A stretch of DNA of 64,000 nucleotides from Escherichia phage 121/2022-2B: sequence record OR958571.1. One strand, written 5' to 3'. A program made the translations under genes and the position numbers. This document shows positions 3,584 to 4,228 of this stretch, one piece after another. The first letter of the stretch is position 1. Every line of letters begins with the position of its first letter. The notes under the pieces are model-generated. The model was not told the DNA's origin and searched no databases. It was given only the letters and a program-made list of their open reading frames with translations.

Positions 3584-3589
3584 TTGATT

Positions 3590-4228
3590 ATGGGGCTTCG
3601 GCCCCTATTCTCGAGGAAACAAGTGATTATTTCTAAGTTTGTTACAATAAAACCAAGAAATCATTCAAAAATGTGGTCGACAATTCTGGGATATAAAGTA
3701 TCATATCATGATACAGTATCTGTTCCAATAGAATTAATGCCAAAGAATAGTAATAAAATAGTTGACGCTAAATGTGATTTGTGTGGTATTAAATTTAGTA
3801 GAAGCATTCAGCTTTTAAATAGAACACCCACGCATGCATGTAGAAAATGTAGCATTAAACAAGTTGCTATTAAAAATTCGGAAGTTCAATCTGGAATAAG
3901 TAGACCATGGCAAAGAGGTGATAAACATCCTCGATGGACTGGTAAAAGAAAAGAGTTTGCATTATATGCTAGTAGAGTTCATTCTATAACTAAGTCAGCT
4001 AAAATAAGAAAAATTTGGTCAAAATGGCCGAATGCTGATAAAATAGGAGTGTGTGGCGTAGAAGGTGCTTACCAACTCGATCATAAAGTATCTATCAAAT
4101 ATGGATTTGATAATTTAATTCCTGCTAAAATAATTGGCGGTATTAATAATTTAGAAATAATCACTTGGGAATCTAACCGAGAAAAATCAAAAAGAAATAG
4201 CGTAGATCTTTGGGATTTACTAGAATGA
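3590..4228 (+). CDS. HNH-family endonuclease-like ORF (putative free-standing homing endonuclease) inserted between genes 18 and 19
   Basis: ORF in track starts at TTG 3584; first ATG 3590. C-terminal HNH-type motif YQLDHKVSIKYGF...GGINNLEIITWESNREK plus two CxxC pairs (CDLCG, CRKC). Start uncertain: hairpin 3592-3605 overlaps it; other in-frame ATGs at 3671 and 3737. Confidence 0.6.
   Translation: MGLRPLFSRKQVIISKFVTIKPRNHSKMWSTILGYKVSYHDTVSVPIELMPKNSNKIVDAKCDLCGIKFSRSIQLLNRTPTHACRKCSIKQVAIKNSEVQSGISRPWQRGDKHPRWTGKRKEFALYASRVHSITKSAKIRKIWSKWPNADKIGVCGVEGAYQLDHKVSIKYGFDNLIPAKIIGGINNLEIITWESNREKSKRNSVDLWDLLE
3592..3605 (+). terminator. stable hairpin GGGGC-UUCG-GCCCC after gene 18
   Basis: perfect 5-bp GC stem with UUCG tetraloop 9 nt after gene 18 stop; recurring T4-type gene-end hairpin. 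Confidence 0.5.

Follow-up and report, generated by a model that had tools for sequence, protein, structure and literature searches.

The 64,000-nt stretch analysed here (the window; Escherichia phage 121/2022-2B, sequence record OR958571.1) is the late morphogenesis region of a T6-like Tequatrovirus, with the gene order gp17, gp18, an additional open reading frame (ORF), gp19, gp20 and onward. The additional ORF occupies the junction between the tail sheath gene (gp18) and the tail tube gene (gp19). We conclude that it is a real and optional cassette of the homing-endonuclease type, belonging to an uncharacterised protein family, and that an earlier reading of the letters by a model (the original prediction) was right in outline. 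As a whole, the best explanation is a free-standing homing-endonuclease-type cassette with a throttle on its start region, to which we give a probability of roughly 0.6, with nuclease activity, target and homing all presumptive. Of all that was seen, the conserved long-range lock on the start region most deserves follow-up. The features of the junction are as follows.

1-1572: gp17
1568-1575, + strand: nearest upstream late promoter box, before gene 18
1604-3583: gp18, tail sheath
3584-4228, + strand: insert relative to T4 and T2, 645 bp
3592-3605, + strand: C(UUCG)G hairpin GGGGC-UUCG-GCCCC, 8 nt after the gene 18 stop; insert-specific, absent from T4, no U-tract
3613-3616, + strand: Shine-Dalgarno sequence GAGG, 6 nt upstream of GTG 3623, visible in the letters themselves
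3623-4228, + strand: likeliest true coding sequence; 201 aa from a GTG start to a TGA stop (4226-4228); equivalent of T6 ORF160, PHROG 5104; putative homing endonuclease
4236-4253, + strand: backbone hairpin GGCCUGU-UUCG-GCAGGCC, common to T4, where it lies directly after gene 18
4255-4262 and 4314-4321, + strand: two T4-type late promoter boxes TATAAATA for gene 19, in the backbone and identical in T4
4336-4827: gp19, tail tube

The boundaries of the insert are exact relative to T4. When the window is aligned with T4, RB5 and T6 and with five more phages that have the empty site, the 645-bp insert stands where the empty site has the 8 bp tacggtgc directly after the gene 18 stop codon, and the coordinates of the insert (3584-4228) are those of the 214-codon ORF called mechanically. 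The empty site reads TAA-tacggtgc-ATTCTAAAGGCCTGTTTCGGCAGGCC-ATATAAATA in T4, T2 and the five further phages, and the empty junction TAA-tacggtgc-ATTCTAAAGG is found in T4, T2 and 382 records; in the window, TAA is followed by the 645 bp and then by ATTCTAAAGG. The 18/19 spacer of T4 and T2 is 116 nt long and contains no ORF. The original prediction had described a 214-codon ORF that fills the 18/19 junction, and had known of no gene here in T4; both statements hold. Conservation of the ORF in all T-even phages including T4, which would have spoken against its proposal, is contradicted by T4 and T2. A scan of positions 3300-4600 with Rfam gave nothing relevant, and in particular no intron match. 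Free-standing homing endonuclease genes (HEGs) are a textbook feature of T-even phages, and the ORF has their setting: it is part of no intron or intein, stands in a spacer that conserved genes flank, has precise boundaries and is missing from close relatives.

Two candidate traces of the insertion were rejected. An imperfect direct repeat, ATTCTcgAGG (3607-3616) and ATTCTaaAGG (4229-4238), was considered as a target-site duplication or as a deletion scar and dropped, as T4 lacks the hairpin that would remain after a deletion between the two copies. The C-terminus of the protein, SVDLWDLLE, was considered as a duplicated gp18 C-terminus and ruled out, as the same helix occurs in relatives with another genomic context.

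The first possible starts of the long frame, TTG 3584 and ATG 3590, are mechanical only. The N-termini of all homologues align as M/V-I-I-S-K at GTG 3623 (ATG at that position in other lineages), the T6 annotation AXN58201 places the start at the equivalent GTG, and the PHROG alignment begins at residue 14 of the 214-aa ORF. Together with the GAGG upstream, these observations place the start at GTG 3623.

The encoded protein and its family

The predicted protein has two domains, numbered here from GTG 3623.

3623-3892, + strand: N-terminal domain, residues 1 to ~90; beta-rich region and four-Cys zinc ribbon (C51, C54, C73, C76; conserved Cys)
3773-3784 and 3839-3850, + strand: CxxC pairs C51/C54 and C73/C76
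3944-4225, + strand: C-terminal HNH-like (His-Me finger) domain, residues ~108-201
4079-4084 (D153-H154), 4148-4150 (N176), 4175-4177 (N185) and 4184-4186 (K188), + strand: invariant codons of the catalytic motif

The N-terminal domain was modelled with a predicted local distance difference test (pLDDT) score above 90. It showed weak matches to DUF4379 treble clefs and to the N-termini of PHROGs labelled "homing endonuclease," and presumably recognises DNA. In the C-terminal domain the invariant residues are Y150-Q-L-D153-H154, N176-L, W182 and N185-R-x-K188. The five residues D153, H154, N176, N185 and K188 are invariant in 29 full-length homologues, as are the equivalent positions in 28 C-terminal domain sequences; in an 83-sequence domain alignment there is no variation at the D, the H or either Asn and almost none at the Lys. 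AlphaFold gave a pLDDT of 87.7 for the whole protein, and for the C-terminal domain a pLDDT of 92.5 and a predicted template modelling (pTM) score of 0.80. In the model the predicted catalytic core has the beta-beta-alpha fold expected of HNH/His-Me enzymes, and the conserved positions supply the residues that mark the HNH superfamily, namely a general-base His where the first strand ends, a structural Asn and a metal-ligand Asn or His on the helix. The N-x8-N-x2-K spacing and motif are the same as in Cas9 fragment P0288, and JGI labels four family members McrA. The original prediction had described an HNH-type motif made of DH...N...N residues and two CxxC pairs. The DH and both Asn are present in the ORF, and so are the pairs, but these lie ~80 to 100 residues upstream, in the separate N-terminal zinc ribbon.

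Profile searches, which the original prediction had proposed as a check, weigh against the nuclease assignment. No significant match to a curated HNH model was obtained in Pfam or NCBIfam with the window protein, its 29 homologues or other members; in Pfam the window protein had no HNH match at E ≤ 1, and the best values among members were E = 0.078 for HNH_4 and E = 0.71 for PF01844. Profile searches of PDB sequences likewise gave no significant HNH match and returned only noise, namely zinc fingers with the full-length profile, leucine-rich repeats with the C-terminal profile, and mitoribosomal mS66. Foldseek against the PDB found nothing at E ≤ 0.001. When compared by hhalign with an HNH_4 alignment built from Cas9 fragments, the family reached a probability of only 9% (P = 0.0036), with the DH and the N..K in register. 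A hidden Markov model comparison with the HNH region of SpCas9 scored 4.3 bits, which is a lead only. The description of the ORF as HNH endonuclease-like thus fits its residues and predicted fold, although the significant profile hit whose lack the original prediction had named as refuting it was indeed not obtained. We consider it very probable that the C-terminal domain has a His-Me/HNH nuclease fold. It would then be a divergent member of the HNH/His-Me-finger nucleases, of the DH...N...N type known from Cas9 and McrA, with a putative nuclease activity.

At 50% clustering, a search with the family profile retrieved 4,424 representatives with E ≤ 1e-3 and 2,448 with E ≤ 1e-10. Curated libraries either miss this large family or label it as of unknown function (it has no Pfam model, and the label of PHROG 5104 is "unknown function"), and in sequence records its members are mostly "hypothetical protein"; as a result, a common class of selfish nuclease would be under-counted. 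Annotations of the family and its neighbours are inconsistent or wrong across phage records. The intact 205-aa ORF of RB5 (KM606995; locus L004, 1534-2151) is unannotated, as are those in the RB6, RB7, RB9 and RB10 records, and the RB3 record names the product a hypothetical protein. The label is "putative head morphogenesis protein" in WL-3 and, in T6 record AP018814, for a matching entry; it is "similar to head morphogenesis protein" in vB_EcoM_005, "holin" in ZCEC14, "type II restriction endonuclease" in Roth19 and Roth21, and "HNH endonuclease" in Ursula. In T2 record AP018813, the 1,980-bp coding sequence in the position of gp18 is labelled "chaperone for long tail fiber formation."

Other phage proteins carry this C-terminal domain joined to tandem helix-turn-helix modules, an IS1-type zinc ribbon, NUMOD3, an A2L zinc ribbon or DUF7487 repeats, and the genes for these fusions adjoin baseplate, topoisomerase and replicative-helicase genes. 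This modularity is the architecture and the genomic behaviour of homing endonucleases. Two relatives with a helix-turn-helix N-terminus (L047, 3500-4279; L054, 3449-4231) lie just downstream of a large gene that by eye is a baseplate-like structural gene; the gene upstream of the endonuclease ORF encodes 606 to 621 aa in L047, L055 and L082. The ends of these endonuclease ORFs (...DIKVRVKN in L047, ...DIIVRVK in L054) repeat the C-terminus of the upstream gene (...VDIKVRVKT in L047), a repetition that points to insertion into the 3' end of the upstream gene, the last codons of which would have been duplicated. At locus L060, two different endonuclease-like ORFs (1863-2798, - strand; 3296-4249, + strand) stand side by side upstream of a gene that by eye resembles a topoisomerase II large subunit; one has DUF7487-type repeats and, by eye, a Vsr-like end, and the other has the same repeats and the C-terminal domain of the insert family.

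Distribution and history of the cassette

Across T4-like phage records, the cassette is a presence/absence polymorphism, the outcome for which the original prediction had proposed to align the 18-19 intergenic region. Allele A (T6 type, that of the window) is present in 69 records and allele B (RB3/RB5 type) in 48, so that ~117 T4-like records carry one of the two, compared with 382 that have the T4-type empty junction. Allele B occupies the same site and shares the 5' end and last third of allele A, with a diverged N-terminal half; the two proteins are 55 to 60% identical overall, depending on the alignment method.

The sheath/tube junction is the position of the gene in every named phage examined. 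Homologues at this junction are found in Gaprivervirus, Karamvirus, Gelderlandvirus, Jiaodavirus, Dhakavirus and Winklervirus, in Citrobacter, Erwinia, Pectobacterium, Shewanella and Acinetobacter phages, and, outside the Straboviridae, in Sinorhizobium phage phiM7 (Emdodecavirus). In IMG/VR, 49 of 80 loci retrieved with the family profile adjoin gp18 and/or gp19 homologues, with gp18 identity down to 37%; the remaining loci share the C-terminal domain only and are located elsewhere. All 18 further loci from phage records and metagenomes are at the sheath/tube junction. In 15 of them both flanking genes could be named, and in the other three (L114, L118 and L123) at least one short flanking ORF could not; six of the 18 are metagenome contigs, in two of which the flanking ORF or ORFs are too short to identify. 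At locus L038 a family member (3117-3707, + strand) is inverted between a gp19-like gene (2446-2988, - strand) and a gp18-like gene (3755-4660, - strand). Locus L010 has a second endonuclease gene (5385-5966), of GIY-YIG (Seg-like) type with NUMOD3-like repeats, between gp19 and gp20, so that its tail-tube gene is bracketed by two different endonuclease genes. The gap between gp19 and gp20 in L024 (~5176 to 5895) is of similar size.

The history of the cassette is decoupled from that of the genes beside it, as expected of a free-standing HEG. Between the window and RB5, gp18 and gp19 are 99% and 99% identical and the insert proteins 60%; between RZ and L099, the flanking proteins are 98% and 99% identical and the insert proteins only 36%. 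Conversely, the insert protein of RZ, which belongs to another genus, is 59% identical to that of the window with gp18 and gp19 at 77% and 71%, and is therefore about as near to the window protein as is the allele B protein. Within one genus-level group three states occur: empty (L098, L100), a cassette just after gene 18 (RZ), and another cassette, for a different and longer protein, whose insertion point in L099 and CBH8 is 3 nt ahead of the gene 19 ATG. Discordant flanks, two insertion points and one inverted copy thus all separate the cassette from its neighbours. Within the window's own gene, a 25-nt patch at 4123-4147 matches the RB5 allele (AKIIGGIN) and not T6/G10400 (PEIIASVK), which makes this allele A a small A/B gene-conversion mosaic.

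The junction itself is the sole consistent difference between carriers and non-carriers in the sample, from which we infer that insertion destroys the target. The original prediction had seen here the kind of site at which marker exclusion would act on sheath and tube alleles. No flank polymorphism that tracks carriage was found in the Tequatrovirus sample examined, and this counts against homing. A cluster of mostly synonymous differences from T4 in the 3'-terminal part of gene 18 (positions 3489-3538, where 50 nt are 72% identical; gene 18 outside this patch is 92 to 100% identical to T4) was considered as a target-site marker of carriers and dropped for want of correlation with carriage. 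The variants of this patch are mosaic among carriers and non-carriers, and it is not a simple immunity marker.

A different view of these data is that the ORF encodes an accessory nuclease in permanent residence, of use to the phage against, for example, competing phage genomes or host DNA, and is inherited mostly vertically and often lost. The same junction is used out to the Emdodecavirus phiM7, and the catalytic residues are invariant over thousands of relatives, which indicates long-term selection on function. In distant environmental phages, moreover, the ORF and the gp18 stop codon overlap (TAATG, ATGA) and gp19 adjoins the ORF directly, in the manner of a stable, integral operon member, an arrangement that also tells against a homing cassette. 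Against residence, close relatives differ by presence or absence with exact boundaries, flanks that are 98 to 99% identical surround proteins that are only 36 to 60% identical, at least two separate insertion points occur and one copy is inverted, and relatives with other DNA-binding modules are scattered beside other conserved genes as HEGs are. We regard residence as unlikely.

Many phage homing endonuclease genes are defunct, and the insert could in principle be a decaying, inactive remnant of one; a 59-aa fragment is annotated in phage WL-3. T4 carries such a relic in I-TevIII (Table 5 of PMC2993671). In 232 of 243 phage records, however, at least 80% of the protein is covered by one uninterrupted tblastn match, its catalytic residues and zinc ligands are invariant, and the RNA element described below is kept by compensatory change, all of which makes decay very unlikely for this family.

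A role in packaging, as a terminase-assisting HNH protein like HK97 gp74 or GVE2 HNH, is extremely improbable. T4, T2 and about three quarters of the close relatives package normally without the gene. T4-type terminases carry their own nuclease, the sheath gene gp18 separates the ORF from the terminase gene gp17, and the insert protein appears to have a sequence-recognition domain of its own.

RNA structure at the start region

The original prediction had proposed that the hairpin at 3592-3605 overlaps the first possible start codons and could throttle or time translation. The hairpin is present, but with the start at GTG 3623 it lies 5' of the Shine-Dalgarno sequence, ending 7 nt before the GAGG, and covers neither. 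It was therefore ruled out as a start-codon cover, and as an intrinsic terminator it was ruled out by the lack of a U-tract, the lack of a terminator call and unremarkable z-scores. It is one of ~10 C(UUCG)G hairpins with stems of at least 5 bp (5 to 10 bp) scattered over the 64-kb window, and we take it to fit the classic T-even intercistronic type. Others lie, for example, at 10241, 13190 (- strand), 16587, 27613 (- strand), 29789 (- strand), 33703 (- strand), 34583 (- strand) and 59970, and CTTCGG occurs 12 and 16 times on the two strands of the window compared with ~7 expected per strand.

No TATAAATA late promoter box was found from 1576 to 4254 in the window, and a terminator scan called no terminator-like site; transcription of the ORF must therefore depend on read-through that begins at the late promoter of gene 18 (1568). 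The insert thus has neither the local hairpin that holds the Shine-Dalgarno sequence nor the embedded late promoter of hairpin-regulated HEGs. In two Acinetobacter phages (L006, L027) and in RZ (L009), a TATAAATA box lies in the stem or loop of a hairpin just 3' of the gp18 stop; the Tequatrovirus cassette, unlike these, has no promoter box in its post-gene-18 hairpin.

The start region instead appears to be engaged by a long-range helix.

3620-3639, + strand: 5' arm, CAAGTGATTATTTCTAAGTT; 3 nt upstream of the start, the GTG start and codons 2-6; one half of an inverted repeat
4148-4167, + strand: 3' arm, AATTTAGAAATAATCACTTG; codons N176-W182 (NLEIITW), the second strand and first Asn of the HNH-like core
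4172-4174 with 3615-3617 (part of the Shine-Dalgarno sequence), 4178-4183 with 3608-3613, and 4185-4190 with 3584-3589, + strand: predicted extensions of the helix, from the RNAfold minimum free energy (MFE) and centroid folds only

The arms form 20 bp, 19 Watson-Crick and one G:U, with 508 nt between them. The helix appears in both the MFE and the centroid folds of 3584-4240 computed with RNAfold (z-score -4.2), in which the predicted extensions (4172-4190) lie around the small 3592-3605 hairpin. When the synonymous codons of the window ORF are permuted so that the protein stays the same, a 20-bp run is reached in only 0.45% of permutations.

Comparison among homologues argues that the pairing is maintained. 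The helix is kept in the 18-19 homologues with a GTG start, the proteins of which have pairwise identities of 42 to 90% (median, 54%). In a fixed-register alignment 83% of cells are paired, compared with 31 to 47% in slid registers. Two-sided changes occur at five pairs, a count that was reached by 0 of 500 shuffles. Among them, I3 ATT->ATC is matched by E178 GAA->GAG in five sequences, and A->T at nucleotide -1 by T181 ACT->ACA in two. In L120 a triple compensation is non-synonymous, S4D (TCT->GAT) being accompanied by E178S (GAA->TCT) so that both peptides are altered. In the 17-bp core (columns 8-24 of alignment A6), every one-sided change yields a G:U wobble on the sense strand, which points to RNA rather than DNA as the paired molecule. 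Synonymous codons in the arms are frozen, with a majority-codon fraction of 0.90 compared with 0.67 in 61 other conserved columns (Mann-Whitney p = 0.0002); in helix-bearing homologues L177 is always TTA and I179 always ATA. The NLEIITW motif is the segment of the ORF that pairs best with the start region (-20 to +20) in 18 of 18 sequences of the GTG-start clade, at -20 to -34 kcal/mol compared with -14 to -22 kcal/mol for the next best.

The partner differs in other sublineages. In the ATG-start homologues L115 and L116, the start region including the Shine-Dalgarno sequence pairs instead with the codons of G-F-D-N-x-I-x-P, over 21 consecutive bp in L116 and with energies to about -34 kcal/mol, and in Acinetobacter phages it pairs with the codons of L-D-H-I-I-P at -21 to -25 kcal/mol. 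On comparison of these sequences, the principle of pairing the start region recurs with shifted partners within the catalytic domain. Such pairing was not found in the cassettes just before gene 19 nor in the environmental ORFs that overlap gp18.

From the alignments we conclude that complementarity between the start region and the motif is under selection, and the helix probably acts as a translational throttle. The suggestion that structure throttles translation therefore looks right, but by way of the helix between the start region and codons 176-182 and not by the 14-nt hairpin. Three points weigh against this interpretation: by our reading of alignment A6 the covariation comes from ~3 to 4 independent events among related sequences, both arms encode conserved peptides, and the helix spans 508 nt, so that it may not form in vivo on an mRNA that ribosomes are translating.

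Selection on the complementarity might also have an object other than initiation, the helix serving as an RNase III-type site of processing or decay or as an inverted repeat at the DNA level. Processing may separate the gene 18 and gene 19 messages and destroy the nuclease mRNA. The perfect 20-bp duplex, up to ~35 bp with the predicted extensions, nears the size of RNase III substrates, and a place between two highly expressed late genes suits processing. The helix, however, always includes the start codon, and the sublineages that have switched partners still target the start region including the Shine-Dalgarno sequence, which makes initiation the more natural controlled step; the sense-strand G:U wobbles favour RNA over a DNA-level role. 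We judge it improbable that processing or a DNA role is what is selected in place of an initiation block, although processing and a translational block are compatible with each other.

The homing cassette would then work as follows. In a mixed infection with, for example, T4 or T2, the enzyme would nick or cut the empty 18/19 junction of that phage or conserved sequence close to it, and the cassette would be copied in by recombination-dependent repair. Comparison of occupied and empty junctions suggests that the cassette's insertion destroys its own target. Having no promoter of its own, the gene would be read through from the strong gene 18 late transcript. The insert hairpin would assume the role of the backbone hairpin at the end of the gene 18 message, the latter being displaced 645 nt downstream. 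The ~20-bp helix between the start region and the NLEIITW codons 525 nt downstream would hide the GTG start, and the predicted extended fold would hide part of the Shine-Dalgarno sequence as well. The helix would close once its 3' arm had been transcribed, so that ribosomes would load mainly in the brief interval before, and also while another ribosome melts the 3' arm. A potentially toxic nuclease would in this way be held low despite its highly expressed operon. The need to pair with ATC-ACT-TGG would explain both the unusual GTG start and the conserved V-I-I-S-K N-terminus.

What the analysis shows is the exact boundaries, the polymorphism, the fidelity to one position, the disagreement with the flanks and the selection on the helix. 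The anatomy of DNA-binding and nuclease-like modules within precise boundaries and discordant flanks fits the free-standing homing endonuclease of the original prediction, with putative cleavage and homing. If the nuclease is active, sheath and tube alleles would be co-converted in mixed infections; T6 carries the gene and T2 and T4 do not, so that these classical phages allow direct tests. More broadly, we put forward tentatively, at somewhat less than even odds, that a Pfam-orphan His-Me nuclease family of more than 4,000 representatives (50% clustering) has a sheath/tube lineage across the T4 superfamily, that this lineage has been exchanged between genera, and that it limits itself by a helix with its catalytic codons that has been re-created with different partners.

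Comparison with known systems

In the literature searched on T4-like homing endonucleases, we found no description of this gene or of a long-range helix for an HEG. A 2010 census of T4-like HEGs has no "other HNH" entry for RB3 or Acj61 (Table 5, PMC2993671); both carry family members, and the family therefore seems to have gone unrecognised there. The same paper stated that there was no convincing evidence for such elements moving between T4-like clusters (PMC2993671), a statement on which the fidelity to one junction from T6 to a Sinorhizobium phage, together with the disagreement of the flanks, bears directly.

As a nuclease, the C-terminal domain was compared with the DH...N...N type systems Cas9/IscB HNH (Pfam HNH_4), McrA, and the Gme and GVE2 HNH nicking endonucleases (PDB 4h9d, 5h0o). 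From the DH to the first Asn there are 21 residues with two short helices, compared with 13 in Cas9, and the domain has no zinc-binding Cys pairs. Matches of the family to Cas9-type and other HNH profiles are all sub-threshold.

As a genetic element, the cassette is closest to the free-standing Seg (GIY-YIG; SegF, SegG, SegB) and Mob (HNH; MobE) HEGs of T-even phages (PMC2988022, PMC2790892). Like these, it is an optional ORF in a spacer between essential genes, in the same orientation and patchy among close relatives, with a nuclease module and a DNA-binding module and with late, low expression expected. Unlike these, it has no detectable sequence relationship to them and no match to Pfam NUMOD, HNH_3 or GIY-YIG in the insert protein, and its nuclease domain is C-terminal and not N-terminal, with an activity that is presumed from sequence. 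The lack of HNH_3 and NUMOD matches and the reversed domain order place it outside the T4 Mob family (MobA-E).

The control of initiation is likewise familiar in part. Hairpins that sequester the ribosome site control I-TevI, I-TevII, I-TevIII, segB and Aeh1 mobE (PMC2988022, section 12), and seg43(25) has a hairpin just upstream of the ribosome site that does not cover it (PMC2988022). The insert resembles seg43(25) in its very stable hairpin immediately 5' of the ribosome site, and the I-TevI/segB/mobE class in that RNA structure would hide the initiation region of an HEG on a long polycistronic transcript. In that class the hairpins are local and are relieved by an embedded late promoter, whereas here the partner lies 508 to 525 nt downstream in the codons of the catalytic motif and, as no promoter lies in 1576-4254, no transcript is expected to escape the structure.

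Pairing over such a distance has its own precedents. In MS2 the coat-replicase "Min Jou" long-distance interaction controls translation, and on read-through transcripts of the IS10 transposase gene fold-back inhibition guards a mobile element against over-expression by outside transcription. A long-distance RNA interaction also controls translation in Qbeta (PMC2978339). As in MS2 and Qbeta, pairing over hundreds of nucleotides would occlude an initiation site, and as in IS10, a mobile element would limit expression from outside transcription. The insert differs from all three in that both arms lie in one gene and one arm consists of codons of the active-site motif, which constrains the GTG and the N-terminal peptide. 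This suggests a new way for a selfish gene to persist in a highly expressed structural operon, in which its own active-site codons would serve as an anti-start sequence.

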